DNA of 64,000 bases, from positions 41,808 through 105,807 of the forward strand of contig JABGPJ010000066.1 of NCBI GenBank assembly GCA_018645005.1, written 5' to 3'. The translations under genes and the position numbers were made by a program. Shown here piece after piece: positions 8,179 to 58,040 of this stretch (within the stretch, counting starts at the first letter, position 1; every line of letters begins with the position of its first letter). The notes beneath the pieces are model-generated. The model saw only the letters and a program-made list of their open reading frames with translations, ran no database searches and had not been told where the DNA came from. Source of the DNA: Deltaproteobacteria bacterium. GTDB taxonomy: Bacteria; SAR324; XYD2-FULL-50-16.

Positions 8179-9324
8179 ATGAAAAAAGAGATTACGTTAG
8201 CAGGTAAAAATTATATCTTGATTGGAACTGCCCATATTTCCAAAGACAGTATTGAAGAAGTATCAGAGGTTATTAGCGATATTCGGCCGGATGCCGTTTG
8301 TGTAGAGTTGTGTGCAGGCCGGTATGAGTCTATCCGGAATGCAGACCATTGGAAAAGTATGGATATTGTCAAAGTGGTCAAAGAAGGAAAAGCCCCGATG
8401 TTGATGATGAATCTGATTCTATCGGCGTTTCAAAAGAAAATGGGTGATAAACTGGGAGTCAAACCCGGGGCAGAAATGGTCAAGGCAATTCAGATTGCAG
8501 AAGAGACCGGCAGTGAAATTGTGCTGGCTGATCGGGATATCACGATCACATTTAAAAGGGCCTGGGGCATTCTATCATTCTGGGAAAAGATCAAACTCTT
8601 TGGTCAGATTTTTGTCAGTGTCTTTGAAACGCCGGATATTTCAGAAGATGAAGTTGAAAGTCTGAAAGAAGGTGATATGTTGACGGAAGCGATTGATATG
8701 ATGGCAAAGGAACTGCCTGGGATAAAATCTGTCCTCATTGATGAAAGAGACCGGTTTCAGGCAGCGAAGATCCTGGAAGCAAAAGGAGAATCAATTGTTG
8801 CGGTTGTTGGCGCCGGACATATTCCAGGAATTATTCATCACATGGAAAATCCAGGGGACATTTCCGAATTGGAAACCACGCCTCCACCCGGGAAAACGGG
8901 GAAAATTCTGAAGTGGGGAATTCCTTTGGGAATACTTGCAATTATTGCCTATGGCTTTTTTGGAATGAATACGGATGTCAGCCTGGAAATGCTAAAGCGC
9001 TGGGTCCTGGCAAACGGGATTCTGTCAGCGTTAGGAGCGTTATTGGCCGGCGGCCATCTCTTGACAGTTTTGGTGGCCTTTGTCGCCGCGCCGATCACCT
9101 CGCTCAATCCAACCATTGCCGCGGGATGGGTCTCAGGTTTGACGGAAGCCTGGATTCGAAAACCAAAAGTTGAAGACTTCGAAAACCTGCCGGTGGACAT
9201 TACCTCAGTTCGCGGATTTCGGAAAAATGAAATCACCAGAATTTTACTGGTGGTCGTTTTGAGCAATCTGGGCAGCACAATCGGGACTTTTATCGGGATC
9301 CCCTTGATTACGTCTTTACTGTGA
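8179..9324 (+). CDS. TraB/GumN-family protein with C-terminal transmembrane segments
   Basis: ITLAGKNYILIGTAHISKDS...AVCVELC motif of the TraB/PrgY/GumN family. Hydrophobic C-terminal third. Confidence 0.65.
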   Translation: MKKEITLAGKNYILIGTAHISKDSIEEVSEVISDIRPDAVCVELCAGRYESIRNADHWKSMDIVKVVKEGKAPMLMMNLILSAFQKKMGDKLGVKPGAEMVKAIQIAEETGSEIVLADRDITITFKRAWGILSFWEKIKLFGQIFVSVFETPDISEDEVESLKEGDMLTEAIDMMAKELPGIKSVLIDERDRFQAAKILEAKGESIVAVVGAGHIPGIIHHMENPGDISELETTPPPGKTGKILKWGIPLGILAIIAYGFFGMNTDVSLEMLKRWVLANGILSALGALLAGGHLLTVLVAFVAAPITSLNPTIAAGWVSGLTEAWIRKPKVEDFENLPVDITSVRGFRKNEITRILLVVVLSNLGSTIGTFIGIPLITSLL

Positions 9325-9403: not shown

Positions 9404-9510
9404 TTAAGGGTTGGCTCAAGAATTACTTGGCATTCTGCCTGCAAAATGTCCTGTCTTTACGAGACTTTTACGGACAGATTATGCCAAGTTATTTTTGTAC
9501 GATCCCTAAG
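9404..9510. repeat. 107-bp intergenic repeat, copy 1 of 3
   Basis: Near-identical 107-bp sequences at 9404-9510, 21122-21228 and 24735-24841, all in the same orientation. They run from TTAAGGG to CCCTAAG, with an internal imperfect inverted repeat AATTACTTGGCAT...ATGCCAAGTTATT. Confidence 0.85.
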
Positions 9511-9535
9511 TGCAAAAAAATGACAGAAATGGGTT

Positions 9536-9773
9536 CAGCAATGTCCGGTTAGGTTTTTGCAGTTCAAAAGCTGAATGATAAAACCCGTCTCTACACATAA
9601 GGATTTAAAGATTTTCTAAGTTTGCTTCACGAAAAACCGCCAAACTCGCTCGTGCTTTGCTCAAACATGGCTCATTTTCGCTACGCTAAACTAAGAAAAT
9701 CTAATAAATCCTTATCAGCGCGATCCAGGCTTCATCATTCAGCTTTTTGCAAAAACCTAACCGGACATTGCTG
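9536..9773. mobile_element. MITE-like non-autonomous element, long form, with 9-bp target-site duplication
   Basis: Terminal inverted repeats CAGCAATGTCCGGTTAGGTTTTTGCA (9536-9561) and their reverse complement (9748-9773). Flanked by direct repeats AAATGGGTT at 9527-9535 and 9774-9782. The internal region of about 185 bp is non-coding. Confidence 0.7.
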
Positions 9774-9840
9774 AAATGGGTTAGATTGAAGATGACAGTA
9801 CGATATTTTAAAAACAACAAACCTGTTTATTCTCTCAGGA

Positions 9841-10209
9841 GTGACGATGGATAGTGAAAAGACGATCTTAAACAATTTTCTACCGCAACTGAAAAGTTTT
9901 GTTAAATCGGAAACGGTTTTTGGAGAACCATACAACATCGGCGAAGTGACGATGATCCCGGTTAATTCTGTGAAAGTCGGATTCGGTTTTGGTTCGGGGG
10001 ATACAAAGACAATTGACAGTTCCGCTGGTGGCGGTGGTGTTTTGCTGACACCGGTCGCATTTATTGTTGTTAAGGGCGAAGACGTTTCCATTCACAATTT
10101 AAGCGCCGGTACGATTGAAAATGTACTGGAAAAAGTTCCTGAAGCTCTGGATAAGTTTATTTCTATATTTCAAAAATTGCAGAAAAAGAATAAAAAGACG
10201 GACGAATGA
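9841..10209 (+). CDS. GerW/YtfJ-family protein (sporulation protein YtfJ-like)
   Basis: VTMIPVNSVKVGFGFGSGD...SSAGGGGVLLTPVAFIVVKGEDVSIHNL matches the remembered YtfJ/GerW core (VSKVGFGFxxGG...GGGxxxTPxAFLxV). Its stop overlaps the next start (ATGA). Confidence 0.55.
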   Translation: MTMDSEKTILNNFLPQLKSFVKSETVFGEPYNIGEVTMIPVNSVKVGFGFGSGDTKTIDSSAGGGGVLLTPVAFIVVKGEDVSIHNLSAGTIENVLEKVPEALDKFISIFQKLQKKNKKTDE

Positions 10210-10817
10210 TTTTTTTATACGGTTTTCTCTTGGCAATCGGGGTTCTGCTGATTGTTATTCTGAGCATCCCTGTTAAAGTTCGTTTGGAATCGAATCTCGT
10301 ATTTCTGGTTCAGTGGGTTTTTCTGACTGTCAGGATTATCGTTGAGCAAAATAACGTCCGAACAGAACTGCAACTATTCAACAAAACAATAGAGAGCCGG
10401 AAAAAAGCCAAACAGAAACCGGTCACTAAACAAAAAAAGGCCAAAAAGAAAAAACCGAAAAAAAAGGTTCCATTCTCATTTTTAAAAGATACCCTGCAGG
10501 ATGCTGCTATTAAAAAAGTTATATACCAGTCTCTTCATTTAGTCCTGCGCTGTCTTTTCGCAATTAAGATCCGATTTTTGAAATGGAATATCGGTTTAGC
10601 AGACTACTACTGGCAGGGAATTATCTATGGTGTTGTCAGCGGATTACCCAATACCAAACGATGGCAAATCCACGGAAATTTTGATGAGGTCAACGATTTT
10701 CTACTGATTATACAAATATCGATCTGGCGAGTTCTATCTGCAATCGCCATTTTTCTATTCTTCTTTCCTTATTTCAGGACATTACGAATTTACATGCGGT
10801 TCCGAGCGGCAACTTGA
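10206..10817 (+). CDS. Small membrane protein with a lysine-rich linker (possibly DUF2953/YtfI-like)
   Basis: N-terminal transmembrane helix (FLYGFLLAIGVLLIVILSI), a KKAKQKPVTKQKKAKKKKPKKK stretch and a hydrophobic C-terminus. In Bacillus, ytfJ is paired with ytfI (DUF2953). The assignment is tentative. Confidence 0.4.
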   Translation: MIFLYGFLLAIGVLLIVILSIPVKVRLESNLVFLVQWVFLTVRIIVEQNNVRTELQLFNKTIESRKKAKQKPVTKQKKAKKKKPKKKVPFSFLKDTLQDAAIKKVIYQSLHLVLRCLFAIKIRFLKWNIGLADYYWQGIIYGVVSGLPNTKRWQIHGNFDEVNDFLLIIQISIWRVLSAIAIFLFFFPYFRTLRIYMRFRAAT

Positions 10818-13800
10818 ATCGGGAAACAGTGAAAAATCCGAAAAGAATCAGCTTTAAAAGCAAAGGACTTGAACTGATACAGGTCTGCGGGCCTTACGCA
10901 GAACTCTATTTCGACTGGAAGCAGATACCGCCTCTTGACCTGAGCAAAAGTTATTACCTGGTCGAAATCTCACCTGACTCGTTGATTCTGCCCCTTGAAT
11001 ATGCCAGACCCAACTCGGACGGGCCGCTTCATTTCTGCCTGAAAACGGGGGTCGAATATCAGCTGAGGCTCCTTGCGGTCCCACTCCCCGCATTTTCGAT
11101 TGAATCTGATCTCGATCCACCTCCTCAATTGGAATTCATTCCCCAACATGAAAATTTGCATAAACTGATCTGGGGAAATGTCGATGTGGAGGCACTAAGT
11201 CAGTCTTGCAACAGCCATCATGTTGAAATTTACCAGGAGGGAATCTTATCCCAGCAATGGGCTCTACAACCGCTTATCTCTTGTGAACTGGTTGGAAGAC
11301 CGGCGGTCATTGAAATTCGCTGCGGCTCTGGTGAGCGGTTGTTACTGATTAACACCAATCTGCAGCAAATGACCTGTGCCGGATCCCTTCCCTTTACCCT
11401 CAAGAAGCAACCGGTTCGACTGAGTCTTTCAACTGCTATCCATCCGGTTCCGGGTTGGCGTGTCAGGGTGGATTTGCCTGGGTCTTTTCAGATGCGGAAA
11501 ATATGGCAGGAATCATTTCTAACTGAGTTTAGCACGTCAGACCCGGCTCATATTATTGGCTGCTTCAGATTTTATGAAAACGGAAAACAGGTTCTCGACA
11601 TCAGGCAGTGGGGATTTTCGACACATATTCAAAACCATCTGATTGACCAGATCCAATTACAGGAGTGGAAGCTCAAAAAGAAAAAGCGGGTTCATCATCT
11701 GAAACTTCAACTTCAGGTCACTTCGGCCCATCGAGAGCTCTATAAATTTGTCCTGCTCGAAAAACAGCTTGCAGGAAATATAAATGTCGAAACGGTTGGG
11801 TTCTCCGAAGATGAGATTGAATCTGCTGAACAGAATTTGTTTAAAAACCAGCGGCATGTCGTCTGGGAGCAAGCCTTTTTTGAGCTGGTACTTTGGTTCA
11901 AGGTGGATGGTCATGACTGGCAGGAATTTCAAAGGGATATCGCCCATTCTCTCCGCTGGGACTATGTCCCCTCAGAATCAGCAACTGAATGCTTTTGCGA
12001 GTGGGTACTCTTCGATCTGAACCAGCCGGATCGATTGGTGACGGTGCTATCTTCAGGTCTGGAGAAACGAATACAATGGCCTGACCGGGTCTATCTGAGA
12101 CCGTTCAATACAGAACGACTGTTTGCCTGTTGGGACCTGGAAAAACGCAACATTGAAAACAGGATCCGGTCAGACTGGGGCGTCGTTCTTTCCCAAGTTG
12201 GATTTTACCTTAAAGTGCATGAGGAGCATCTTGGTACGAGAATCCGGCGTGCAGACCTGGATTGTCACTTGATTGATGTTTTCTCTGCTCAAAAAAATCT
12301 CTATTTCGATGTTGAACCCAATAAGTGTTTTTCGGTTGAGATCGTCGCGCGTTTTGAACAGCAAGAGATTTCACTGACACCGGTATCCACATCTGTCGTT
12401 ACCCCCAGAAAACCGGATCAGTCATCTCTCAGCTACCCCCACTACAGCAAATCAGAAAGCCAGGGGTATCATTGCACCCAGCGGCAAGTCCGTCATCTGC
12501 AGGGAACAGATGCTCAAAACAGAGCCAACGTTATGCTGCACCTGCATATGCACTCCCCAAACCTCTATCGGGCTGATCCTTTTCGGGAGAGCTTTCTGAG
12601 AGACGGCACCTGGCCGATTGTCACCAACGAAGGGGCTGAAGTTCATAATCCGCCAGGGGAATGGGTTTTGAGGAACTGTCTAGATTCTTGGCTACCGATT
12701 CTGAGAGTTTTGCGTAGTCTGGCTGCGGAATCGGTCGATTATCAGCTCAGTCTCGATATATCACCTCCCGTGGCCTATATGATAAGTAGTCCCTGGTTCA
12801 AGGACTACATGTCCCGTTATTTATTGCGGATGAAAGCATATGTGAGCGGACAGATTGCCTTGATGAAATTCCGCAACGATTCACCTGATTTTATTTATGC
12901 AGCGGAGCGCTGTCTGATCGATTTGGATGCGATTGAATCTTTTTACATTTCTGATCTGGATAAAAACATCATCGGTGCTTTCCGTGAACTTGAACTGCAA
13001 GGGTTCGTTGAAATATCAACCTGTACAGCAACGCATGGAATGCCTGCCGAGCTGGAGAGTCTTCCGGATGCACTTGACAGTCAGATTACACTGGCTGCCA
13101 GAAGCCATCATCGAATTTTTGGAGATCGGCCCAAAGGGATCTGGCTTGCTGAAAACTCTTTTTTCCCTGGCGTTGAACAGTTGCTTTCCAGAGAAGCGTT
13201 GGGATTTTTCTTTGTTGAAGCAGAAGCTATTTTATGTGGGTCGCACAAACTCTCCGAAGAGGAGTTCAGTCCGGTTATCCTCCCTCTGAATCAGGTAGTC
13301 GCATTTGGCCGCAGCCGTTTGGGCAGAGCCCAGGTCTGGGATGCTGACATTGGCTATGCCGGTCATCCGGATTTTCGAGAATATCATTTTCGGCACTTAG
13401 GGTTGCCGGTCAAGCGGATCACTTCGAAAACAACGGATGACAAACAGCCGTATCACCCGGACCAGGCAGAAAAGACGGCTCGGAAGCTGGCACAGGATTT
13501 TCATCACAAACTGAGTGAGAAAGCCTTCGAATTAAGCAGCCGCAGCTTTAAATCGATTCCCCTGATCAGCTGTACCTATGACGCCGAGCTATTCGGTCAT
13601 CATTGGTGGGAAGGACCTGTTTTTCTGGAAGAGCTTTTAAGAGAGTTTTATCGCAAAGCGGGTGCAATCGGATTGACGACACCATCGCATTATCTCGCAG
13701 GGAATCCCACTCTACCCGAGGTGGTGCCAAATCCATCCACCTGGGGGCATGAAGCGGTGCATGTAAAGTGGACGGATCCGAAAGTTGCCTGGACGTTCAG

Positions 13801-14131
13801 AGAATTAGAAAGAGCGGATCAGATTTTGAAAACCTATTTAGCACTGGGTCAGGAAAACAGGCTGACAGATTTTCAAATACGGATTGTTGAGCAGATGGAG
13901 GCGGAATTCATCCGTGCGCAAAGCTCGGATTTGACTTTTGTCATCATGGCCGGAGATTTTGAGGAGGATATGCAGAGAGAAATTTTGAAGTACCTGGACT
14001 ACTTTTATCGTCTCAAATCCCTGATTGACAATAATGTTGAGGACGAACAATTTCTGTTGTTCCGGCAGTACGAAAATAATATGTTTCCTGAAATTGCCGG
14101 ATGCTATGCCATCCGTCTGCAACCCACTTAA
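10814..14131 (+). CDS. 1105-aa fusion protein: uncharacterised N-terminal region of about 560 aa plus a C-terminal GH57 alpha-glucan-active domain
   Basis: The C-terminal half carries GH57 hallmarks: HLHMHSPNLY (like LHAHLPY), GIWLAENSFFPG (nucleophile Glu region) and CTYDAELFGHHWWEG (acid/base Asp region). The TTG start overlaps the upstream stop (TTGA). No recognisable family for residues 1-560. Confidence 0.65.
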   Translation: MNRETVKNPKRISFKSKGLELIQVCGPYAELYFDWKQIPPLDLSKSYYLVEISPDSLILPLEYARPNSDGPLHFCLKTGVEYQLRLLAVPLPAFSIESDLDPPPQLEFIPQHENLHKLIWGNVDVEALSQSCNSHHVEIYQEGILSQQWALQPLISCELVGRPAVIEIRCGSGERLLLINTNLQQMTCAGSLPFTLKKQPVRLSLSTAIHPVPGWRVRVDLPGSFQMRKIWQESFLTEFSTSDPAHIIGCFRFYENGKQVLDIRQWGFSTHIQNHLIDQIQLQEWKLKKKKRVHHLKLQLQVTSAHRELYKFVLLEKQLAGNINVETVGFSEDEIESAEQNLFKNQRHVVWEQAFFELVLWFKVDGHDWQEFQRDIAHSLRWDYVPSESATECFCEWVLFDLNQPDRLVTVLSSGLEKRIQWPDRVYLRPFNTERLFACWDLEKRNIENRIRSDWGVVLSQVGFYLKVHEEHLGTRIRRADLDCHLIDVFSAQKNLYFDVEPNKCFSVEIVARFEQQEISLTPVSTSVVTPRKPDQSSLSYPHYSKSESQGYHCTQRQVRHLQGTDAQNRANVMLHLHMHSPNLYRADPFRESFLRDGTWPIVTNEGAEVHNPPGEWVLRNCLDSWLPILRVLRSLAAESVDYQLSLDISPPVAYMISSPWFKDYMSRYLLRMKAYVSGQIALMKFRNDSPDFIYAAERCLIDLDAIESFYISDLDKNIIGAFRELELQGFVEISTCTATHGMPAELESLPDALDSQITLAARSHHRIFGDRPKGIWLAENSFFPGVEQLLSREALGFFFVEAEAILCGSHKLSEEEFSPVILPLNQVVAFGRSRLGRAQVWDADIGYAGHPDFREYHFRHLGLPVKRITSKTTDDKQPYHPDQAEKTARKLAQDFHHKLSEKAFELSSRSFKSIPLISCTYDAELFGHHWWEGPVFLEELLREFYRKAGAIGLTTPSHYLAGNPTLPEVVPNPSTWGHEAVHVKWTDPKVAWTFRELERADQILKTYLALGQENRLTDFQIRIVEQMEAEFIRAQSSDLTFVIMAGDFEEDMQREILKYLDYFYRLKSLIDNNVEDEQFLLFRQYENNMFPEIAGCYAIRLQPT

Positions 14132-14157
14132 TCCACCTGACATAATCCAGATTTATT

Positions 14158-14210
14158 CAGCAATGTCCGGTTTGGTTTTTGTTTTGCAAAAACCTAACCG
14201 GTCATTGCTG
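14158..14210. mobile_element. MITE-like element, minimal 53-bp form (terminal inverted repeats only), with 9-bp target-site duplication
   Basis: CAGCAATGTCCGGTTTGGTTTTTG-TTT-GCAAAAACCTAACCGGTCATTGCTG, the same termini as the 9536-9773 element. Flanked by direct repeats AGATTTATT at 14149-14157 and 14211-14219. Begins 27 bp after the stop of the GH57 fusion gene. Confidence 0.7.
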
Positions 14211-14289
14211 AGATTTATTCAAAGATAGACCTTAAAAGGAGGCTACAACATCAGTAGTCTTTTACGTACTCAAATAGACAAGGAGTTTC

Positions 14290-14844
14290 ATGATGACAGA
14301 AGAGATCACTAAAATCGGTATCGTGACTGTGAGCGATAGGGCTTTTCGCGGTGAGTATGAAGATAAAGGCGGACCCGCCATCCGGGACTGGCTGCAAAGC
14401 GCCTTGAAAAGTGAGTGGGAAGGGATCGGAAAAATTGTTCCGGACGAACAGGATAGTATCGAAACGGCACTGCGGAGCCTGGTTGACCAGGAAAAATGTC
14501 ATCTGATTCTAACGACCGGTGGGACCGGTCCGGCAAAAAGGGATGTGACGCCAGATGCGACTCTTTGCATTGCGGATAAGGTGATGGATGGATTTGGAGA
14601 ACGAATGCGTTCTATCAGTTTGAAATATGTTCCCACGGCCATTCTCTCCCGGCAGGTGGGTGTTATTCGCAAGCAGTCTCTGATTGTAAATCTACCTGGT
14701 CAACCCAAAGCCATTAAGGAGACTCTGGATGAACTTTTCGAAGCGATTCCTTACTGCATTGAGTTGTTAGAGGGGCCTGTGCTGGAAACAAACGAAGAAA
14801 TCGTCACGGCTTTCAGACCCAAATCTGCAAAAAACAAAAAGTAA
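14290..14844 (+). CDS. mogA: Molybdenum cofactor biosynthesis protein MogA/MoaB family
   Basis: IGIVTVSDRAFRGEYEDKGGPAI...LILTTGGTGPAKRDVTPDAT is a MoCF_biosynth domain signature. Length 184 aa. Confidence 0.8.
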   Translation: MMTEEITKIGIVTVSDRAFRGEYEDKGGPAIRDWLQSALKSEWEGIGKIVPDEQDSIETALRSLVDQEKCHLILTTGGTGPAKRDVTPDATLCIADKVMDGFGERMRSISLKYVPTAILSRQVGVIRKQSLIVNLPGQPKAIKETLDELFEAIPYCIELLEGPVLETNEEIVTAFRPKSAKNKK

Positions 14845-15160
14845 GATCTACCCTTCTTCTGAAGAAATATTCATATTTATCTGAAATCATATCATATTGA
14901 TTTCGGGATGAAAGCCCTTATTAAATGATAAGGATCAAACTTTATATGATTAGAATATACAAAATGAACCTTGCCGTTATAAAATTAAAGGATATTTTGT
15001 AAATGGAGAAGATCTGTTTTGATGGGGTTCCCGCAAAGCGATAATGACTTGGTATAAATGGGAGTTGGGTTATTGAAATTAATGATGACCCATTTCCAAT
15101 GACAAGTCGAGATACCTTTTCTGTTATTTTGTACGATTAACCACAAGACAAAGAAAAATT

Positions 15161-16240
15161 ATGGATTCTATTGAACAGAAAATAAGGGAAACACTGCAAC
15201 AGATCCCTTTCAGTAACAACGGCGGGAATATTTTGGACAGCGGCGTTGTCTATTCGCTAGAACTTAAAGGTGAAACCGCCAATGTTGTGCTTGTCATCGG
15301 TGAAGAAAATCAGTCAATCAAGGACGAAACAGCTGCGAAGGTAGAGCAGGGGTTGAAATCCGTTGAGGGCATCAGTGAAGTGGGAGTTAAAGTGGTGAGC
15401 TCCCAGGCAGAGATCGAGGCGCAACAACAGCCGGCTTCTGGAGAAAATCCGGCACCACCGGAGCAGGCAAACTATCTTCAGGAATATGCAAACGTTATTC
15501 TGGTCGCCAGTGGCAAAGGCGGAGTTGGAAAATCTACGGTGGCAATCAATCTGGCCCTGGCCCTCAAAGCACTGGGGAAAACCGTTTCTGTGTTGGACGC
15601 CGATGTCTATGGCCCCTCCATTCCTATCATGCTTGGAAAGCGGGACGAACCATTGCAGGTGGAAGGAGAGAAGGTTAAGCCGTTGAATCAGTTTGGTATT
15701 GATTTCATGTCTGTGGGCAATATGGTCAAAGAAGATCAGGCACTAATCTGGAGAGGGCCCATGGCTCATCAGGTGATCCAGCAAATGCTCCGTGATGCAG
15801 CCTGGCCGGGGGGAGATTATATGATTGTTGATCTACCACCGGGAACAGGGGACGTTCAACTCTCTCTCTCCCAGATGGTAGCAGCCACAGGTGCCGTTGT
15901 TGTTTGTACGCCACAAGATGTAGCGCTGCTGGATGCGAGGAAAGCGATTGCCATGTTTACCAAGGTCAATATCCCTGTTCTGGGTATGATTGAAAACATG
16001 AGTGCTTTTGTCTGTCCTAAATGTGGTGCAGAGACCCCGATTTTTGCAAAAGGCGGCACCGAGCGTGAGAGCTCCGCTCAGGAAGTAGCCTATATCGGTG
16101 GTGTTCCAATTGAAATGGATATCCGACTGGGATCCGACAATGGTGACCCCATCGTACACGCCAGTCCAAATTCAGGCAGTGCAAAAATTTTCATGGAAAT
16201 GGCAGCTAAACTGGACCAGATAGTGACGGAGGCGGGTTAA
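15161..16240 (+). CDS. apbC: Mrp/NBP35/ApbC-family iron-sulfur cluster carrier ATPase
   Basis: N-terminal DUF59-like region. Deviant Walker A ILVASGKGGVGKST. CxxC motif (CPKC) in the C-terminal half. Confidence 0.85.
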   Translation: MDSIEQKIRETLQQIPFSNNGGNILDSGVVYSLELKGETANVVLVIGEENQSIKDETAAKVEQGLKSVEGISEVGVKVVSSQAEIEAQQQPASGENPAPPEQANYLQEYANVILVASGKGGVGKSTVAINLALALKALGKTVSVLDADVYGPSIPIMLGKRDEPLQVEGEKVKPLNQFGIDFMSVGNMVKEDQALIWRGPMAHQVIQQMLRDAAWPGGDYMIVDLPPGTGDVQLSLSQMVAATGAVVVCTPQDVALLDARKAIAMFTKVNIPVLGMIENMSAFVCPKCGAETPIFAKGGTERESSAQEVAYIGGVPIEMDIRLGSDNGDPIVHASPNSGSAKIFMEMAAKLDQIVTEAG

Positions 16241-16560
16241 TGGCAGGCAGCAAATTAAGCACCAGACCCAAGGAGATTACCTTTGACGGCAGAATGCACA
16301 TTATCTGGCATGATGGTGCGCACACAATTTATAACTATTGGGATCTGCGAACTGCATGTCCCTGTGCGTCCTGTGTGGATGAACTCACCGGCGAAAAAGT
16401 GTTGGATGACAACAGCGTGCCCAAAGAGATTCATCCGGTGAAGAGTGCCTATATTGGTAATTATGCGCTGGAAATTCTCTGGAGTGATGATCATAACACA
16501 GGGATCTATACATTCCAGAAATTACGTGACGAATATCCTCATTCAACCGCAGCGATTTGA
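16240..16560 (+). CDS. DUF971-family protein (gamma-butyrobetaine hydroxylase-like N-terminal domain)
   Basis: ITFDGRMHIIWHDGAHTIYNYWDLRTACPCASC is characteristic of DUF971. Its start overlaps the mrp stop (TAATG). Confidence 0.7.
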   Translation: MAGSKLSTRPKEITFDGRMHIIWHDGAHTIYNYWDLRTACPCASCVDELTGEKVLDDNSVPKEIHPVKSAYIGNYALEILWSDDHNTGIYTFQKLRDEYPHSTAAI

Positions 16561-16576
16561 TTCAGCGCCTTTTTGA

Positions 16577-17752
<1,176 letters not shown>

Positions 17753-17786
17753 CCGGGTTTGAGGGACCTGTTTTTGGAAGATATTG

Positions 17787-19079
17787 TCAGGTTTTCTCCA
17801 TTTGGTTTTCTATCGTCAGGCGTTGCTCATAACATTTTCTTGAGCCTTCGTCGTCACCCTGGTCGTATAGCAGCTTTCCCAAATGATCGAGTATATCCAA
17901 CTGTCCTGTAAAATCTTTGATCGTCTTTTTAATGGCTAGGTGATTCTGGTAGGTTTGCGTGAGTCTGGGCCAGTCTTCCAACTGATGATAGGCTGTTTCG
18001 ATCTCTGTATAGATCTCGTCCATTTTATCAAATTTATGCAATTGCCTGAATTCATTTAGCGTAGTAAACAGAAAATGAACCGCGTATTGCTGCTGATCTG
18101 CTTCGACATATCTCTTTACAATCTGCTCCAGTAATTCCAAATGCTGGGGATGCTGTTTATCCACATAGTTTGTAAAAAGCTCCTGCTGGGTTTTTGACGC
18201 TTTTTCATGCTGGTCAAGATCGAACTCACAATCTCCCTTCAACAGTGTCAGCTTCACTATCATGTCAGCGGGGACCTCCATCTCGACAGGCGAGTCGAAA
18301 AACTGACTTAATGCGGACAGGCTCTTATCATATTCCTTTTTCTGATAATAACTCTGCGCCATTGATAGCGTTATTTCAGCTGCATCTTTGGTTCCCGATT
18401 CATCTGCTTCAAAATCGCTGCTGGTGAGAGCCTCTTGAGATGTCAATGGCGGCGCCATCTTCGGACCTTCCGTCTCCCGAGTTTGTTCATTTGAATTCGA
18501 CGGCAGAGAGAGGTTAGTCAGTTTTTTTGGGGGCAGTTTGACAGGGTCCACTTTACCCGAAGAAACTTCGGGTGTCTCTTTAATATCGTCGAACATTGTC
18601 CCTATTGATGCTACCGATATTTTTTCTTTTATGTTCCTTTCAGGTTTTCCGGGGCTTTTCTTTCTGGCTGCTGGCAGCCCTGGTTTACTCTTTTGGGGTG
18701 GTGCTTTTGGTGTTTCGGTTCTCTTTTCCTGGAGTTTCGTTTTGCTTTTACTGGACAGTGAGAGAATGACATCATTCTCACCTTCAGATTTTCTCAGCCC
18801 CGATTTACTGGATTGCGTCAAGTTTTTTTGAAACCGAGAAAAGACGCTCGGATCAATGGCTTGGTCTGGGGAACCGGATTGATCCGATACAAGGGACTCC
18901 TTTTTAGCGGCGGCTGACTTCTTTCCGGTTGTCAGATTCTGAGATCTACCACCTTTTTTATGGGTCCGGGAGATGATAAACTGTAGCTGAACCATCAGCA
19001 GAAAAACCAGCCCTATGATGGCGAGCTTGGTTTCTATATCCAAATCGATATAAGAAACGGCTATACCGGATGCAGCCAC
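17787..19079 (-). CDS. Hypothetical membrane-anchored protein with a low-complexity lysine/serine/proline-rich region and a C-terminal helical (TPR-like) domain
   Basis: N-terminal transmembrane helix (LAIIGLVFLLMVQLQFII), then about 200 aa of disordered K/S/P-rich sequence, then a helical C-terminus. No family assigned. Confidence 0.45.
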   Translation of the reverse strand: MAASGIAVSYIDLDIETKLAIIGLVFLLMVQLQFIISRTHKKGGRSQNLTTGKKSAAAKKESLVSDQSGSPDQAIDPSVFSRFQKNLTQSSKSGLRKSEGENDVILSLSSKSKTKLQEKRTETPKAPPQKSKPGLPAARKKSPGKPERNIKEKISVASIGTMFDDIKETPEVSSGKVDPVKLPPKKLTNLSLPSNSNEQTRETEGPKMAPPLTSQEALTSSDFEADESGTKDAAEITLSMAQSYYQKKEYDKSLSALSQFFDSPVEMEVPADMIVKLTLLKGDCEFDLDQHEKASKTQQELFTNYVDKQHPQHLELLEQIVKRYVEADQQQYAVHFLFTTLNEFRQLHKFDKMDEIYTEIETAYHQLEDWPRLTQTYQNHLAIKKTIKDFTGQLDILDHLGKLLYDQGDDEGSRKCYEQRLTIENQMEKT

Positions 19080-19316
19080 AATCGTCAGAACTTGAATAAG
19101 TGGTTTAATGATTTTTCACTCCGTTTAAGATCGTGAATAAAACTACCCAGCTAACCAATTTTTAATGCGGTGGGGATGACGTTCAAGTTCGGGCAAATCA
19201 TTAGTTTGATAGGCTTGACTCCGGACGCGACTATCCTTTCTGTTCAAGAGACGCTTTCAGGCTGATAACAAGATCGCCACATTTGAGGACTTCGCCTTAA
19301 ATCCAGTATTTTCGGG

Positions 19317-19826
19317 CTATGTCCACCTACTATCTCGATATTTTGATTCAAGGTCAACGACTTTAAGGTTTGAATCTCTCAGGCGAATTGCCAGCATTTT
19401 CGCAAAATTTCGATAAAGCTTGTATGCAATAGCAAAATATTTTCGTGTTCCGGAAATCTGTGTCAACATTTCATCATTGATCGAAAAAAGCAGTGAGTTG
19501 CCTCTGGCTGTGGCTTTTGCCGACCTTCTGCGCTGATCCAGCAGTCCCATCTCTCCAAAACACTCTCCAGGATTCAAGACTGCCAGCTCTGTCTCTTTAT
19601 CTATACCGTCTTTCTTTCCAATTGTTTTGCTGATAACGACATTTCCATTAATTAAAATGTACATTTTGGAGCCGAATACGTTTTCTTCAAATATCGTATC
19701 ACCATCTTTATAACGTTCCGGGTTCATAAACTTTAAAAACGTATAGAGCTCTGCATCTGTAAAACCTTTAAAAAATTCGACAGATACTTGAAGTCTTTCA
19801 AAAATGCTTCTGTTTATCTTTATCAT
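19317..19826 (-). CDS. Stand-alone cyclic-nucleotide-binding domain protein with no DNA-binding domain
   Basis: cNMP-binding signature GECFGEMGLL...RSAKATA within a 169-aa protein. No helix-turn-helix. Confidence 0.7.
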   Translation of the reverse strand: MIKINRSIFERLQVSVEFFKGFTDAELYTFLKFMNPERYKDGDTIFEENVFGSKMYILINGNVVISKTIGKKDGIDKETELAVLNPGECFGEMGLLDQRRRSAKATARGNSLLFSINDEMLTQISGTRKYFAIAYKLYRNFAKMLAIRLRDSNLKVVDLESKYRDSRWT

Positions 19827-19979
19827 GTCTTTAGATTGAGTAGACCATGCTTTTCAAACAGCCTGCTCGGCAATAGTTTACCCGGAAAGTTAATAAAATG
19901 TGGTGTACGTTGCTTTCCCCGTAGCAGTCTTTATAAATTTGTAACCTGTTTCTCAAATTCAGGCAAATAATTTATGTGA

Positions 19980-20951
19980 TCAGGCGATTAATGAATAGGT
20001 TGTCTGTGGGACACTTTCATTTCTCAATATTTGATGGGTTTCCTCAAGGTATCTTAAATGCGCGATTGCTTCCCCTGTCGCAAACCATTTTTGAGGAACT
20101 GGAAACTGCTCCCAGGAATCGCATTTGATATCCCAATGCATCTTTGACGCGACTCCGTACGCGTGTCTGGATCCTTGGTCCAGTATGGAGAGTATTTCGT
20201 CCAGCCTCGCCATATGATGATGTTTGAGCTCATCAATCCGCTCTCTGAAATTTGTAAACATACTCCGATGCCCAGGCAGGACCAAATCGACTACCAGAGG
20301 GTATACTTTATCCAGACTATTGAGGTAAAATTTCAGCATATCCTGCTGGTCAGACCAGCCTTGTATGTTTGGGGTAATGTCACCTAAAATGTGATCACCT
20401 GAAATAAGCAGCCTTTTATCCGCTTCATAAAGGCAGGTATGGCCAAGCGAATGTCCCGGAGTTTCGATGCAGGTCAGTTTATAGTCGCCAACTTCAAGCA
20501 AATCACCATCCTGCAGAATCTTAAGCTCAGGAACCCATTGCGTTCCGAACTTCTTTCCAGGGTGTTGCTTAAACGCATTTCGGAGTTCAGTTTCTGGGAA
20601 ACCGTTTTCGGCAGCATAGGTAAACATGTGCTCAAAACCGTCCCATCCATCGAGAATCTCCGCATCGGGTCGATTAAAATATATGGTGCTTGTAGGCGTT
20701 TTAAGTTTTTCTACCAGACCAAAATGATCAGCATGTAAATGGGTAATAAAAAAATCGGTACAAGTCAGGTCAATATTCAGAGAGCGTAAGCCTTTTTGCA
20801 TCGCTGCAAGACACTCTTCCCGATTAAACCCCGTATCGATGATCAGGTTGCGAGTAGAGCCCGTGATGATATAAGAATTCAGTGATTTTAGAGGACTATC
20901 AGGTAGCGGAATTTCAAGGCGGTAAAATCCAGGTAAAATTTCTTCGGGCAT
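19980..20951 (-). CDS. MBL-fold metallo-hydrolase
   Basis: THLHADHFG metal-binding motif plus downstream His/Asp ligands. Start moved to the internal ATG at 20951 (MPEEILPGFY), because the upstream 62 codons overlap the 107-bp repeat and look non-coding. Confidence 0.65.
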   Translation of the reverse strand: MPEEILPGFYRLEIPLPDSPLKSLNSYIITGSTRNLIIDTGFNREECLAAMQKGLRSLNIDLTCTDFFITHLHADHFGLVEKLKTPTSTIYFNRPDAEILDGWDGFEHMFTYAAENGFPETELRNAFKQHPGKKFGTQWVPELKILQDGDLLEVGDYKLTCIETPGHSLGHTCLYEADKRLLISGDHILGDITPNIQGWSDQQDMLKFYLNSLDKVYPLVVDLVLPGHRSMFTNFRERIDELKHHHMARLDEILSILDQGSRHAYGVASKMHWDIKCDSWEQFPVPQKWFATGEAIAHLRYLEETHQILRNESVPQTTYSLIA

Positions 20952-21121
20952 AAGTTTGTCCTTTGATTCTGAAAATGGGATCGGCAAATTTCGTAAGACC
21001 TTTTGTTTATTGTATTTCCAAATGTGTTGATAAGAAAATATAACATTTTTTCGGGAAAACTCGCAAGTAGCCGGAGTACTGAAAAAATGTAATGACTGGT
21101 TATCTGTTAATAAATTAATTA

Positions 21122-21228
21122 TTAAGGGTCGGCTCAAAAATTACTTGGCATTCTGTCAGCAAAATGTCTGGTCTTTATGGGACTTTTGCGGACAGTTTAT
21201 GCCAAGTTATTTTTGTACGATCCCTAAG
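21122..21228. repeat. 107-bp intergenic repeat, copy 2 of 3
   Basis: Same element as 9404-9510. Ends 18 bp before the priA start codon. Confidence 0.85.
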
Positions 21229-21246
21229 ATCCATTTAGGGTACCAA

Positions 21247-23652
21247 ATGATAGTAAAAGTAGCTTTAAATATTCCCTTCACTGAACCTTATGATTATCAG
21301 ATCCCTGAAGAATTGAATCTACAGATCAATGTCGGTATCCGAGTTCTCGTTTCTGTCGGCTCCAGAAGAATGATCGGAGTGGTTGTTGAGATTCTGTCAG
21401 CGTCAAAGCATGACAAGCTCAAACCGGTGTTAGCGCTGATTGAAAATGAGCCTGTTTTCGATCCTAGAATGCTTTTTTTCACAAAATGGATTTCCAATTA
21501 CTATCTCTGCAGTTGGGGAGAGGTTCTGGACGCTGCTTTACCGACAGGTTTGAAACCAAAAGTGATTAAGAAGATTCAGGTAGATACCACCAGCATCAGC
21601 CAATTATCGCTGGATCCTCAAGAAGAGGAGTGGTTGAGATCGATTGTGGACAAAAAAGAGTCCGATATCTTGAAGAACAAAAAAGGAGAAGATTACAGCC
21701 ATCTTTATTCGAAATTGAAAAAGAAGAAGATCATTTATCATATCTATACACACACGACCGGTAATTCAGGTCTTTCCTATACAGAGTGGTTGAGTTACCA
21801 ACCCGAATATGGAGATCAGGTCACAGTCAGAAAGGGGAGCCTGACAAGCCAGATACTGCAGTGGTTTAAATCAGAAAATGAACTCATACGGCAAACCGTA
21901 TTGGACCGGTTTCCAAACGCCTCGCCCCAGTTAAACAGTTTGATCAAAAAAAAGGCGCTGCTGAAATCAAAAAAACCAATACCAGTCGGATCTTGTCCCT
22001 CGACAATCAACACGGATCTGTTTATTCAGCCCAATGTTGAACAGCGTGTGGCGATAGACACCATTTTAACGGCAATCAAGCAAAAAACGTATCAAACCTT
22101 TCTGTTACATGGCGTCACCGGTAGCGGAAAAACAGAGGTGTATCTTTATGCCGTCAAAGAAGCCATTCAACAAGGGCAAACGGTTCTGATATTAATTCCG
22201 GAAATCTCATTGACTCCTCAGGCTGTTAGTCGCTTCAGAGAACGATTCGGAGATCGCATTGCTGTCCTGCACAGCGGAATGGCTGAAAAAGAGCGTGCTT
22301 TGGAGTGGTGGAAAATAAAAAGAAAGCTCTGTGATATTGTTATCGGGGCGCGTTCAGCCATTTTTGCCCCCTTAGAGGATATCGGATTGATCGTTGTGGA
22401 CGAGGAACATGACACGTCATACAAACAGCAGGAGGGCCCTTTTTATAATGCCAGAGACGCTGCGGTGAAAATCGCTAGTGAACGGGGCTGTGTAGCTCTG
22501 CTGGGATCTGCGACGCCATCTGTCGAATCATATTTCAATTTATCCAGCGGGAAATATACCCATCTCAGACTTAAAAACAGGGTGAATCGACAGTCGCTTC
22601 CAAGTTTTGAATTGATAGATCTAAAAAAGGAAGAGCGACAGAAAGGCGCCTTTTATCTCTCTAAACACTTTATCACCCGGTTGAAGGGGGTTCTGCAACG
22701 TCAGAAGCAAGCACTGATCTTTTTAAATCGTCGAGGATATGCGGCATTTTTATCCTGCGCGTCCTGTGAACTTCCAGTCCTCTGCCAGAACTGTTCAATT
22801 GCACTAACCTGGCATCGAACCCGGCAGCGTTTAATCTGCCACCATTGCGGATTCAGTCAGAACTATCCCCAAACCTGCCCTCACTGTCACGAAACTGTTT
22901 TTAATCTTGAGGGCATCGGGACCCAACGAGTTGAAAGGGACCTTAAGCTACTTTTTCCTAACGCAAGATTTTTGAGAATGGACCGGGATACGGTTCGTAA
23001 GAGGGGAGCTCTGGAGCGAAATATCGACAAAATAAATGACAGGCAGGTCGATTTTGTGATTGGGACCCAGTTGATCAGCAAAGGGCACGATTTTAAGCAT
23101 ATCGGGATTGTCTGCATCATATTTGCTGATATGAGCCTCAATATCCCGGATTTTCGGTCTTCTGAACGAAGTTTTCAACTGATATCCCAGGTATCCGGCA
23201 GAGCTGGCCGGGACGAGAAAAGTGTTGGTCTGGCTTTGATCCAGTCATATAACCCCGGGCATTATGCATTTCAGACTGCTATACAGAATGATTTCACTGG
23301 ATTTTTCAACCAGGAAATGATGTTGCGCAGGGATTTGGATAATCCGCCGTACATCCGACAGATTCTGATAAAAGTCAGCGATAAAAATCCGGGCAACGTT
23401 GAGATATCTGCTGTTAAACTAGGAAGTATCCTTAAGGATTCAGCAGTACGATCGAATTTCCAGGTTCTCGGCCCGGTCGAATCTCCGTTACAAAAAATAA
23501 ATAATCGTTACTACTGGCAAATCTTGATCAAGAGCGGGGAAATTGGAAAGGCTAAACGCTTTATCAGAGATCTTCTTTTTAACCGCAAAGGCTGGCGGGT
23601 GAAAGCGGGGACACGGATTTCTATTGATGTTGACCCCATGACAATGCTGTAA
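21247..23652 (+). CDS. priA: Primosomal protein N' (replication restart helicase PriA)
   Basis: DEAD-like helicase motifs (GVTGSGKTEVY, DEEHD). Cys-rich zinc-binding insert (CASCELPVLCQNC...CHHCGFS...CPHC). Start placed at ATG 21247 (MIVKVALNIPF), because the longer ORF from 21145 runs into the repeat. Confidence 0.9.
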   Translation: MIVKVALNIPFTEPYDYQIPEELNLQINVGIRVLVSVGSRRMIGVVVEILSASKHDKLKPVLALIENEPVFDPRMLFFTKWISNYYLCSWGEVLDAALPTGLKPKVIKKIQVDTTSISQLSLDPQEEEWLRSIVDKKESDILKNKKGEDYSHLYSKLKKKKIIYHIYTHTTGNSGLSYTEWLSYQPEYGDQVTVRKGSLTSQILQWFKSENELIRQTVLDRFPNASPQLNSLIKKKALLKSKKPIPVGSCPSTINTDLFIQPNVEQRVAIDTILTAIKQKTYQTFLLHGVTGSGKTEVYLYAVKEAIQQGQTVLILIPEISLTPQAVSRFRERFGDRIAVLHSGMAEKERALEWWKIKRKLCDIVIGARSAIFAPLEDIGLIVVDEEHDTSYKQQEGPFYNARDAAVKIASERGCVALLGSATPSVESYFNLSSGKYTHLRLKNRVNRQSLPSFELIDLKKEERQKGAFYLSKHFITRLKGVLQRQKQALIFLNRRGYAAFLSCASCELPVLCQNCSIALTWHRTRQRLICHHCGFSQNYPQTCPHCHETVFNLEGIGTQRVERDLKLLFPNARFLRMDRDTVRKRGALERNIDKINDRQVDFVIGTQLISKGHDFKHIGIVCIIFADMSLNIPDFRSSERSFQLISQVSGRAGRDEKSVGLALIQSYNPGHYAFQTAIQNDFTGFFNQEMMLRRDLDNPPYIRQILIKVSDKNPGNVEISAVKLGSILKDSAVRSNFQVLGPVESPLQKINNRYYWQILIKSGEIGKAKRFIRDLLFNRKGWRVKAGTRISIDVDPMTML

Positions 23653-23693
23653 TTTGCTAACCATGGGATCTATTATCAAGGCTGGGAAACAGC

Positions 23694-24692
23694 CTAATTT
23701 ATTTTGTCTGAATTTACATCGATCTTCAGAGTTTTTGCTTTCTTTCCTGTCTGCACAAATATCAATCGGGTATGACCGGCATCGACATCCAAAAATTCTT
23801 CTCCATCCATAATCACTGTGATATCGATGGTTTTTCGGACACTGTTTTCTCCCTTGAACGGTTTAACGATGGCCTTGATTCTGGCATAGCCACGCTCGTT
23901 CAAATGGATGTCTGTGCCAAATCGAATATTGTCGAATACATGGCTGATATATATGGGCCCCGCACGAAAGGCATTCTGGTTGGAATTTTTTTGAACCATC
24001 TGTAATGTTAAATAGACCCCTACCTCTTCTCTGGTTTCAGGAACCTTAATTTCAGTCTTATCAGCTTTGATAACCAGATGGAAAGGCAGGTTTTTGATCT
24101 TGTCGCTGATTGAGCCCCGACGGGTAATTCCAGAGAGGATTTGTCCGGGCTGCAAATCAACTGCGTCATCATCGTTTTTCACCGTGACTGCCCCTGAAGA
24201 CAGACTGACAGTCAATTTATCATCACGCTCGACCATTGAGACAACGGTCCCCTTGATACCTGCCGTTGCGGTTGGGGTCCGAATAGTAGTGCTCTGGTAC
24301 TTCTTGGTAAATTTGCCCCAGAAAGAGCCAATTTCTAAGAAAAGGTGATGCAAAAAACGCCTTGATCCTTTTTTTGATTCCACCGATTTTTCTAGCAAGA
24401 AGCGCGTATTTGTGAACAAACGTAATAAGGACCCATCTCGAAAGGCAATTGTGACTTTTCCAGTTTTACCGGTGACAACCATATCCTGATCATAAAGAAT
24501 CAAACCGGTTCTGCCTGCAAGCCGGGCGGAACCCCTCTCGATTTCGATTTGACCCCGAAGATCTTTGATGCTGGCTACCGCGTTTATGGCGAAGCTGTTC
24601 GGTACCCACAGGGTTAGTATCAAAGTCAAACTGATCACGGCTGACAAAAAAGCGTTTTTGAGCATGGATTTTCTCTCACCCCCTTTATACAT
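23694..24692 (-). CDS. FecR-domain protein with N-terminal signal peptide or anchor
   Basis: A hydrophobic N-terminus followed by a FecR-like beta-rich domain (GQIEIERGSARLAGRTGLILYDQDMVVTGKTGKVTIAFRDGSLLRLFTNTRF). No adjacent ECF sigma factor gene. Confidence 0.55.
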   Translation of the reverse strand: MYKGGERKSMLKNAFLSAVISLTLILTLWVPNSFAINAVASIKDLRGQIEIERGSARLAGRTGLILYDQDMVVTGKTGKVTIAFRDGSLLRLFTNTRFLLEKSVESKKGSRRFLHHLFLEIGSFWGKFTKKYQSTTIRTPTATAGIKGTVVSMVERDDKLTVSLSSGAVTVKNDDDAVDLQPGQILSGITRRGSISDKIKNLPFHLVIKADKTEIKVPETREEVGVYLTLQMVQKNSNQNAFRAGPIYISHVFDNIRFGTDIHLNERGYARIKAIVKPFKGENSVRKTIDITVIMDGEEFLDVDAGHTRLIFVQTGKKAKTLKIDVNSDKIN

Positions 24693-24734
24693 TTTTCAAT
24701 ATGTTCTAACGAAATTTCACTTTTGATTTGTAGC

Positions 24735-24841
24735 TTAAGGGCTGGCTCGAAAATTACTTGGCATTTTGTCTGCAAAATGTCCAGTCTTTTCAGAACTTTT
24801 GCGGACAGATTATGCCAAGTTATTTTTGTACGATCCCTAAG
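24735..24841. repeat. 107-bp intergenic repeat, copy 3 of 3
   Basis: Same element as 9404-9510 and 21122-21228. Confidence 0.85.
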
Positions 24842-43385: not shown

Positions 43386-43829
43386 ATGCCAAGTTTTGTG
43401 ATTACTGAGAAATGTGACGGTTGTAAAGGCCAGGACAAAACCGCTTGTATGTATATTTGTCCTCATGACCTGATGAAACTGGACATGGATTCAATGAAAG
43501 CATGGAACCAAGAACCGGTTCAGTGCTGGGAGTGCTATAACTGTGTAAAAATCTGCCCTCAACAGGCAATTGAAGTTAGATGTTATGCTGACTTTGCTCC
43601 ACTCGGGGCCGCATGTATCCCCATGAGAGGAACGGATACAATTATGTGGACCGTCAAGTTTCGCGATGGAATGATTAAAAGATTCAAGTTCCCGATCCGA
43701 ACTATCGAAGAAGGATCACTGTCAATTACTGATGGCGTGCAAGATGTCCAGGTTGACGTTAGCAAGATTAAAGAGCAGGGACTGTACACACAACAGGCTG
43801 CAGGCGTAACGTATCCCGTTCCGGCATAA
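43386..43829 (+). CDS. aprB: Adenylylsulfate (APS) reductase beta subunit
   Basis: MPSFVITEKCDGCKGQDKTACMYICPHDLM...CWECYNCVKICPQQAI...MWTVKFRDGMIKRFKFPIRT matches Desulfovibrio AprB almost motif for motif. Confidence 0.92.
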   Translation: MPSFVITEKCDGCKGQDKTACMYICPHDLMKLDMDSMKAWNQEPVQCWECYNCVKICPQQAIEVRCYADFAPLGAACIPMRGTDTIMWTVKFRDGMIKRFKFPIRTIEEGSLSITDGVQDVQVDVSKIKEQGLYTQQAAGVTYPVPA

Positions 43830-43899
43830 CTGTTGTTTTTGAATATTTTGATTTCACCGCTTATTTTACTCATTACAACCTTTTAGGAGTGTTAGCGTA

Positions 43900-45870: not shown

Positions 45871-45932
45871 TCCAGAGCCATCTGGTCTGGTATCTGCTGC
45901 GTAAGCTGCAGGTACCAGTTGTGTGAAAGACG

Positions 45933-45980
45933 ACAGAGTGGTGTCTTAGGAAAAACTTCGATGCCACTCTGTTTTTTTTA
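45933..45980 (+). terminator. Rho-independent terminator-like hairpin after aprA
   Basis: Stem ACAGAGTGG...CCACTCTGT followed by TTTTTTTT at 45972-45979. Read-through into qmoABC remains possible. Confidence 0.5.
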
Positions 45981-46119
45981 ATGTATGAGACGATCACCTC
46001 ATCAGATTCAATCCGGAAGTAAATATTTTAGTTCCAAACCGGTAAGACAGGTTTTAACACACAAAGCGAAAGAATTATTCACAATATTTAACTATCCGAT
46101 CCAACTACAAGGGAATTGA

Positions 46120-47373: not shown

Positions 47374-47377
47374 AAAT

Positions 47378-49534: not shown

Positions 49535-49705
49535 CCCGTGAACATTTTGAATTTTTGATTGAACATTCACTGTCATTTTGACCAATTCCAGTTTGTGTCA
49601 AAATGACATCTGTTATCTGACAATCTGTGGAACGTTAGTGATTTATTGGATAGTGTCTATATCCTGAGAAGATTGTCGAATACCAAATAATTGGAGGTTT
49701 TTCGA

Positions 49706-50914: not shown

Positions 50915-51014
50915 CAGTTTGCAGGTTTTGTAGTCTTTGTTGATCAATCTGTCACATCTGCCGCGATTCCTTTCGCGATAGATTTTTTTGAATAAAAACT
51001 GGGAGATACAGAAT

Positions 51015-52280: not shown

Positions 52281-52317
52281 TGATTGATTGATCACTGGAA
52301 AGTGTCTTTTAGCTTTA

Positions 52318-52352
52318 GGTGCGCCAATAGGCGCACCGTCAGAAGTTGTTTT
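52318..52352 (+). terminator. GC-rich hairpin after sat, a possible attenuating terminator
   Basis: GGTGCGCC-AATA-GGCGCACC at 52318-52337, followed by a T-rich tract (GTTGTTTTCT). Confidence 0.35.
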
Positions 52353-52408
52353 CTACCCTGACACGCAATTTTTAAGACGAATTATCAGAAATTAAGGAGA
52401 ATCTAATC

Positions 52409-53329: not shown

Positions 53330-53741
53330 CAACTAGTGGGTTGCTTGAAGTTGTTTCTTTTATCGCCCGCCACGGCATAAATAATCGCTTGTCGGGTGAT
53401 AAAAACCGGAAAGTAAAACGAAAATTCCGGGTCTGGATCCGATTCGGTGAAATCTGAAGTTCACTTCTGATGATTGGAACCGAACACCGAGTTACAGATT
53501 TCAAGCGGTTGACTGACACTTGTGCCGTATTTCAACAGGTTACCGAAATTGTCAGTCTGACCGCTTACGAATCGTTACTTTTTCTTTAAATTTTGTGTTA
53601 CTTCTACTATATGTATATCTCCATCTTTCGACTATTTAAAATCAGTGGAAGTTGTACAAAACGGAAAAGAGAATATTTGTTCACGCCTCAGGCGTAAGAT
53701 GATTTTTTCATAAGATTAACGAGAATAATCTGGGAGGAAAA

Positions 53742-54971: not shown

Positions 54972-55081
54972 GGCTGATCCAAAAATGACCAAATGAATCT
55001 TAAAGATTGATTCATTCAGACTTGAATCGAATATTTTGAATATGCTAATCAGAAAATATATCACTTTTTATTGGAGAAGCT

Positions 55082-57796: not shown

Positions 57797-58040
57797 TGTT
57801 TGACGGTCAAAACTGTTTTGGGCAGCTGCGAAATGGGTATAAACACGCTTTCAAGGCTGCCAATCAGTGACCTGGATCAATCAATAATTTGAGACGTTAT
57901 TGTAGAGTGGGTCAACAGAAGAGAAAGAGTACGATAACCGCCCATCGGTGCTGAAAAAAGAGCTTAGATGGGAGGTTCATTTGGGGGAAACACAAATCTG
58001 TGTTTCAAACGATTTAAAAACAGATATTACGGAGAATAAT

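Follow-up and report, generated by a model that had tools for sequence, protein, structure and literature searches.

The Correia elements (CREE/NEMIS) of Neisseria and the RUP elements of Streptococcus pneumoniae are ∼100-155 bp long with inverted-repeat ends, RUP having a length of 107 bp. Both have a long and a short form, distinguished by an internal segment, and both are present in hundreds of intergenic copies and form hairpins in transcripts. Both duplicate TA upon insertion, and RUP has been attributed to an IS630-type transposase. Among the insertion sequences (IS) of the IS5 family, the IS1031, ISL2 and IS427 groups make 2-4-bp duplications, often at TNA (ISfinder family tables). PIF/Harbinger elements, which are related to bacterial IS5, make 5'-TWA-3' duplications, and NuwaII makes C|TNA|G (PMC4482050). 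Here we describe a repeat, likewise of 107 bp, that is present in three copies in a 64,000-nucleotide stretch of contig JABGPJ010000066.1 (positions 41,808 to 105,807; hereafter the window). The three repeats are very probably copies of a non-coding MITE (a miniature transposable element with inverted repeats) that is dispersed in uncultured marine SAR324-like bacteria and would be moved in trans by a DDE transposase. This diagnosis is based on a fixed 3-bp duplication, unlike the 2-bp duplication of Correia and RUP, at a preferred palindromic target and on inverted-repeat ends, as well as on filled and empty sites, nested insertions, subfamilies and the avoidance of coding sequence.

Boundaries of the element and target-site duplication

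The three copies were located at 9404-9510, 21122-21228 and 24735-24841, as in the first-pass annotation of the window; they share a length of 107 nt and lie on the + strand. Their pairwise identity was 88-91%, and their flanks were unrelated. When the copies were aligned together with their flanks, similarity ended at GGG... and ...CCC, and the sequence TTAAGGG...CCCTAAG can be parsed as T-TAA-[GGG...CCC]-TAA-G. Within the 107-bp span, the element itself is thus a 99-bp core with one flanking base and one TAA on each side (Table 1). TTAAGGG and CCCTAAG, previously taken for the conserved ends of the repeat, reach outside the element and consist of the flanking base, the duplicated TAA and the start or end of the core. 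The constant length and conserved ends of the repeat result from the conservation of the preferred target, TTAAG, and from the young age of the copies.

The core is an imperfect palindrome, GGGTCGGCTC...GTACGATCCC. Its 26-bp terminal inverted repeats, GGGTCGGCTCAAAAATTACTTGGCAT and GGGATCGTACAAAAATAACTTGGCAT, are identical at 20 of 26 positions, and their similarity extends through nearly the whole arms. The two ends may also be given as GGGTCGGCTCAAAAATTA and GGGATCGTACAAAAATAA. The inner dyad, AATTACTTGGCAT with its mirror ATGCCAAGTTATT, occurs exactly once per copy; the motif had 10 matches in the window against 2.3 expected, a number reached in none of 100 shuffles. The center between the dyad arms, earlier described as variable and ∼55 nt long, measured 47 nt and is itself palindromic. 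An nhmmer model built from the three copies detected no fourth copy within the 64-kb window.

Table 1. Positions of the three MITE copies and their target-site duplications in the window.
Feature	Position	Strand	Description
MITE copy 1, core	9408..9506	+	99 bp, GGGTTGGCTC...GTACGATCCC; terminal inverted repeats 9408-9433 and 9481-9506
Copy 1, target-site duplication, left	9405..9407	.	TAA
Copy 1, target-site duplication, right	9507..9509	.	TAA
MITE copy 2, core	21126..21224	+	99 bp; terminal inverted repeats 21126-21151 and 21199-21224
Copy 2, target-site duplications	21123-21125 and 21225-21227		TAA
MITE copy 3, core	24739..24837	+	99 bp; terminal inverted repeats 24739-24764 and 24812-24837
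Copy 3, target-site duplications	24736-24738 and 24838-24840		TAA

The flanks were analyzed in a larger, de-duplicated set of ∼150 copies from one related metagenome-assembled genome (MAG) and at least 120 metagenome loci, in which the ends of the element were taken from model coordinates (153 copies for the duplication counts and 158 for gene context). The 3-nt flanks matched exactly in 18 of 28 copies of a first set (permutation p = 1e-4) and in 96 of the 153 de-duplicated copies, with one mismatch in a further 42; in 5000 shuffles the mean number of exact matches was 51 and the maximum 67. The exact duplications were TAA (66), TTA (21) and others (9). Flanks other than TAA co-varied across the element, with TTA on both sides in 21 copies and also TAT, TGA, AAA, TCA and ATA. 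A pyrimidine (C or T) preceded the duplication in 124 of the 153 copies (81%), and a purine (G or A) followed it in 129 (84%). From the flank matches and this bias at the neighboring bases, the target is therefore a palindromic Y-TWA-R that is cut with a 3-nt stagger.

Family size, subfamilies and nested insertions

The exact right-end 26-mer was found in a single MAG, JAOZRE01, among 185,579 species representatives scanned. It occurred there 32 times, on 30 contigs and on both strands, which sets the genome-wide count in this MAG at no fewer than 32 copies. A degenerate pattern fitting both ends matched at least 120 metagenome loci. Among the metagenome loci listed, a profile gave at least 193 non-overlapping matches in 0.94 Mb. 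Apart from the seeding match, a further copy was thus present roughly every 13 kb, a spacing that suggests ∼10^2 copies per genome. JAOZRE01 and the metagenome populations belong to different species, their orthologous stretches being only 64-85% identical in DNA (mean 72%). The repeat copies are ∼90% alike across species whose orthologous genes are ∼70-75% identical in DNA.

The cores fall into length classes of 99 bp (96 copies), 137 bp (21 copies) and 97 bp (15 copies), the 137-bp class having an extra 38-nt hairpin within the left arm. A sister subfamily, B, has the arms TTCACAT/ATGTGAA, compared with TTGGCAT/ATGCCAA in subfamily A. B was found nested in A at two different positions, and because the A[B] composite recurs at several loci it has itself moved. 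Loci with nested A and B elements are L094:2307-2505, L100:5169-5404, L116, L104, L149, L119, L124 and L139:9545-10064; in L139 the nesting is triple, with a 243-bp MITE of a second family (see below) within B within A. A family-A element was also observed at the same TAA in two populations (L033:3230-3374 and L124:1633-1782) with flanks that are ∼78-85% identical. In one population this element is the 137-bp variant, in the other it is a short copy into which B is nested, and the shared position is either an old common insertion or the repeated use of a hot spot.

Empty sites

Filled and empty versions of the same site were identified at several loci. In L097 the sequence reads TGAT-TAA-[137-bp element]-TAA-GAG, and the 95%-identical locus L070 reads CTGAT-TAA-GAGC, an empty site with a single TAA. 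L077 contains a tandem pair with one common TTA, and the same locus from another sample (L081) contains one copy. For the copies of the window, four related species (priA protein 87, 82, 76 and 71% identical) keep the full gene order of the priA region with no copy. In the closest sister species (L157) the exact site of copy 2 is empty (TTAT-TAA-GATCCATTCAAGGTACCAAATG; also given as TTAT-TAA-GATCCATT), and the site of copy 3 is unoccupied in all four of the syntenic sister species. As these sites are unoccupied, copies 2 and 3 were inserted specifically in the lineage of the window. L157 also has ∼260 extra bases upstream of priA (L157:5549-6000) that are without counterpart in the other relatives and may be another insertion in the same intergenic region.

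The elements are thus short (97, 99 and 137 bp) and non-coding, have inverted repeats and a duplication of fixed length, and occupy dispersed sites that are filled or empty, the characters by which bacterial MITEs are recognized. A DDE transposase supplied in trans would bind both ends of the element, excise or copy it, and insert it at Y-TWA-R, mostly TTAAG or CTAAG. The cut would be staggered by 3 nt, and its repair would duplicate the central TAA or TTA.

The same sites bear on the alternative that the repeats are REP/BIME- or REPIN-like palindromes, spread by a RAYT (an IS200/IS605-like tyrosine transposase) that recognizes a DNA hairpin. The size of ∼100 nt, the hairpin-forming potential, the intergenic position and the high copy number would all agree with this, and the co-variation of the arms between subfamilies (see below) is what hairpin recognition would select. 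However, REP and REPIN elements are not known to generate target duplications, whereas a 3-bp duplication flanks most copies of the family and an empty site has a single TAA. In addition, the long inverted-repeat ends are typical of DDE elements and not of 20-40-nt REP units, and no RAYT or other Y1 transposase domain was detected in the window. We consider a REP-like origin extremely unlikely.

Hairpin structure

Each copy folded end to end into one long imperfect hairpin of -35 to -49 kcal/mol, with z = -5 to -9 relative to shuffles. For the three window copies, whose folding the first-pass annotation had proposed, the stable end-to-end hairpin was obtained on either strand. Such stability in every copy would be expected if the repeats were structured small-RNA genes or cis-acting RNA elements, with the ∼100-nt hairpin as their product and dispersal as a secondary matter, but the two strands folded about equally well.

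RNAalifold applied to 100 copies yielded a weak consensus of 13 pairs, and pairs were instead counted on the single-sequence structure. Over 100 distinct copies 93.9% of the pair cells were paired and 40 were changed on both sides, a number that none of 500 shuffles reached. Both values would speak for an RNA function. However, the double changes came nearly all from ∼10 sequences of subfamily B (pairs 26-82, 27-81, 34-72 and 36-70) and, being confined largely to this one subfamily, represent few events. Arms that bind the same transposase would also co-vary without any RNA. On the + strand G-U cells outnumbered A-C cells (185 vs 55), as an RNA would predict, but this excess could be traced to three to four subfamily marker substitutions, and among rare variants the counts were 35 G-U and 29 A-C. 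No strand-specific RNA constraint was visible in the pairing statistics.

A search of Rfam gave no match at the gathering score across the whole window. At permissive thresholds the best matches were generic miRNA-precursor hairpins with ∼23 bits against cut-offs of 60-117, and the proposed Rfam lookup hence returned no family for the repeat. A promoter scan detected no sigma-70-like site inside any of the window copies. The orientation of the copies relative to genes is random (41/38; see below), and the duplications and empty sites show that the copies arrived by DNA transposition. Taken as an explanation of the repeats, an RNA gene or cis-acting RNA element is very improbable. Of the three identities that had been offered for the repeat, a structured small-RNA gene and a REP/BIME-like element were dropped, and a second MITE family was kept because the duplications, empty sites, nested insertions and subfamilies show transposition.

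Gene context

Copies were intergenic in 153 of 158 cases. Relative to co-directional neighbors 41 had the same and 38 the opposite orientation, and the intergenic contexts were co-directional (79), divergent (22) and convergent (22). Right ends faced gene starts 74 times and left ends 64 times, and the distance to gene starts had a 5th percentile of 13 nt and a median of 118 nt.

In the window, copy 1 lies 83 nt downstream of a TraB/PrgY-family gene (8179-9324). It was said to abut the neighboring MITE, from which it is separated by 23 nt. Copy 2 occupies the divergent intergenic region that separates priA from a metallo-beta-lactamase-fold gene (- strand). From the end of its core to the ATG at 21247 there are 22 nt, so that the 107-nt unit stops 18 bp before priA as first described. 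Copy 3 is in the divergent intergenic region between a FecR-domain gene (- strand) and a 305-aa gene at 25451; copies 2 and 3 accordingly flank the priA and FecR-domain gene pair, in line with the first description. The spurious upstream open reading frame (ORF) that had been noted to overlap copy 2 was identified as a TTG-started extension of priA. Some public gene calls start priA at TTG 21145 (21145-23652), giving 835-aa proteins (P0002 and P0006) that read through copy 2, whereas the conserved start is the ATG at 21247 (801 aa). The false N-terminal extension of 34 residues in these calls is due to the insertion of copy 2, and it is the only ORF that overlaps a copy.

These positions raise the question of whether the copies were co-opted as regulatory modules, either as outward promoters in the T-rich right end or as bidirectional intrinsic terminators, and were kept near priA and the FecR-domain gene for this reason. 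Copy 2 is separated from the downstream priA start by 18 nt, both it and copy 3 lie in divergent promoter regions, and copies of the family are often near gene starts. The layout of an A-tract, a long stem and a T-tract is present on both strands, and a scan marked copy 3's inner hairpin as terminator-like. On the other hand, right ends face gene starts about as often as left ends do, the distribution of contexts is unremarkable, the promoter scan was empty inside the copies, and sister species keep the same priA-FecR arrangement without the element. The promoter elements that had been proposed for the last 40 bp of the repeat are likewise at odds with the scan and with the numbers of right and left ends facing gene starts. 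We therefore regard a regulatory role as an unlikely explanation. For a MITE moved by a DDE transposase, effects on neighboring genes would be a by-product, arising from a hairpin with A-tract and T-tract in the priA leader or from a terminator-like structure on either strand.

Search for an autonomous partner

The family rather likely belongs to the IS5/PIF-Harbinger superfamily, as judged from the length and sequence of its duplication and from a loose resemblance of its ends. Published ends of the IS5 family, for example those of ISNme1 (GAGACCTTTGCAAAA), have the layout G(A/G)G...AAAA (PMC4596501). One diverged copy begins GAGATCGTTTAAAAA, which agrees with the ISNme1 end at 11 of 15 positions in a hand count and is a likeness of layout only. 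The assignment rests on these two features because no autonomous element was found.

This and several further results weigh against a MITE moved by a DDE transposase. The search for an autonomous element covered the window, ∼1.3 Mb of related loci, plasmids and viral contigs, and none was found. Pfam scans of 40 window ORFs, together with the Pfam labels of the genes called on contig L001, showed no transposase domain; the window ORFs considered were those with 100 aa or more. When the 1,158 ORFs of the related loci (∼1.3 Mb) were compared all against all, no multi-copy ORF was revealed, only orthologous pairs. A fuzzy search was also made for two ends that are separated by 0.4-3.5 kb and have matching duplications, and each such pair proved to be two neighboring MITEs. 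Four variants of the ends gave only chance matches (E 3-9) in a blastn search against 72,556 plasmids, and a scan of viral contigs for the end pattern gave no match. A 50-kb stretch of an Acetobacter plasmid contained no IS1031-type protein. Furthermore, 37% of the copies were without an exact duplication; most inexact duplications are one base off, which fits later mutation. Finally, the compensatory changes between subfamilies A and B affect four to five pairs, some of which are located within the arms past the 26-bp ends. Compensation in the arms is not predicted by simple decay and could reflect selection on the hairpin itself. Compensatory changes are expected where both arms must fit one transposase, and the inner pairs leave some room for hairpin selection.

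Given the ∼90% likeness of copies across species, the complementarity kept in the arms and the absence of a visible partner IS, we see a small chance that the family is more than decaying junk, in the form of hairpin-dependent mobilization, a not-yet-described transposase or recent transfer between species. A non-coding MITE mobilized in trans nevertheless remains the explanation that we favor.

Similar ends, GGGATCGTTCAAAAATAAC and GGGTTGGCTCAAAAATAAATTGG, were observed on contigs of other organisms with a GC content of 53-59%, compared with 44.5% for the window. These loci are L093:2037-2127, L126:273-363, L060:11701-11830 and L109:1246-1278, and they include an element of ∼91 nt. In L060 (Ga0114931_10009244) the contig breaks off 130 nt from the related end and no second end is visible; this end may belong to a full-length IS of that group.

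Second MITE family and host of the window

A second, unrelated MITE of ∼243 bp is located at 9534-9776. It has the ends TCAGCAATGTCCGGTTAGGTTTTTGCA, and a direct repeat of 7-8 bp (AATGGGT) flanks it. At 14156-14214 a 59-bp mini-copy consists of the two ends back to back, flanked by GATTTAT, and the two copies bracket a 4.6-kb segment that holds a GH57 gene. In the metagenome loci at least eight near-full-length copies were present together with shorter derivatives. The longer duplication points to a transposase family different from that of the 99-bp element.

Contig L001 is identical to the window, which over 22 kb also matches marine MAG contigs labeled 'Deltaproteobacteria bacterium' at 100% identity. 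The nearest named homologues of priA are from the SAR324 cluster. The gene content of the window includes lipid-A genes, a GH57 enzyme, priA, a FecR-domain protein and TrkAH. A dense cluster of sulfur-metabolism genes is present at 43386-60906, with aprB, aprA, three Qmo-like genes, sat, a DHH-family phosphoesterase, an ATP-citrate-lyase-like pair, dsrC and dsrAB-like genes; it fits a SAR324-type sulfur-oxidizing lifestyle.

Comparison with known systems

A search of the literature returned no paper on MITEs in SAR324, and no matching element was present in any collection searched. The SAR324-like family therefore appears to be undescribed so far, although MITEs of similar dimensions and form, among them Correia, RUP, ATR and BrickBuilt, are well known from bacteria. 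MITEs are routine in bacteria, and the family leaves the knowledge of MITEs unchanged. Its practical consequences concern annotation, with the mis-extended priA calls at copy 2, and assembly: several copies are cut off at contig ends, and the repeats probably break assemblies. Filled and empty sites are ready strain and species markers for an abundant, uncultured, sulfur-cycling marine lineage. If the partner transposase is found, the clean bacterial TWA signature would be a data point for the connection between IS5 and Harbinger elements.

No sequence similarity is expected between the SAR324-like family and Correia or RUP. REP/BIME and REPIN elements are also abundant intergenic repeats that form hairpins with co-varying arms, but REP-type elements depend on RAYT and lack the target-site duplications, of 3 bp, that the SAR324-like family has. 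The Neisseria ATR, whose parent is ISNme1, and MITEPgRS and BrickBuilt of Porphyromonas gingivalis are similar in being non-coding, intergenic and multi-copy, with G(A/G)G....AAAA ends (PMC4596501). For these, full-length IS with ends that are identical or within one base are present in the same genomes (PMC4596501), unlike here, where none was found. The duplications of BrickBuilt are irregular (PMC4596501), whereas that of the SAR324-like family is a clean 3 bp.

The Tourist-like PIF/Harbinger MITEs of eukaryotes differ in their host, which here is bacterial, and in the partner transposase, for which no counterpart was found; the ends of the SAR324-like family begin with GGG (GAG in the diverged copy). 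Together with the bacterial IS5 relatives, they share with it a 3-bp TWA duplication inside a palindromic extended target, and the Tourist-like MITEs are further alike in their small size, inverted repeats, high copy number, preference for non-coding sequence and nesting.

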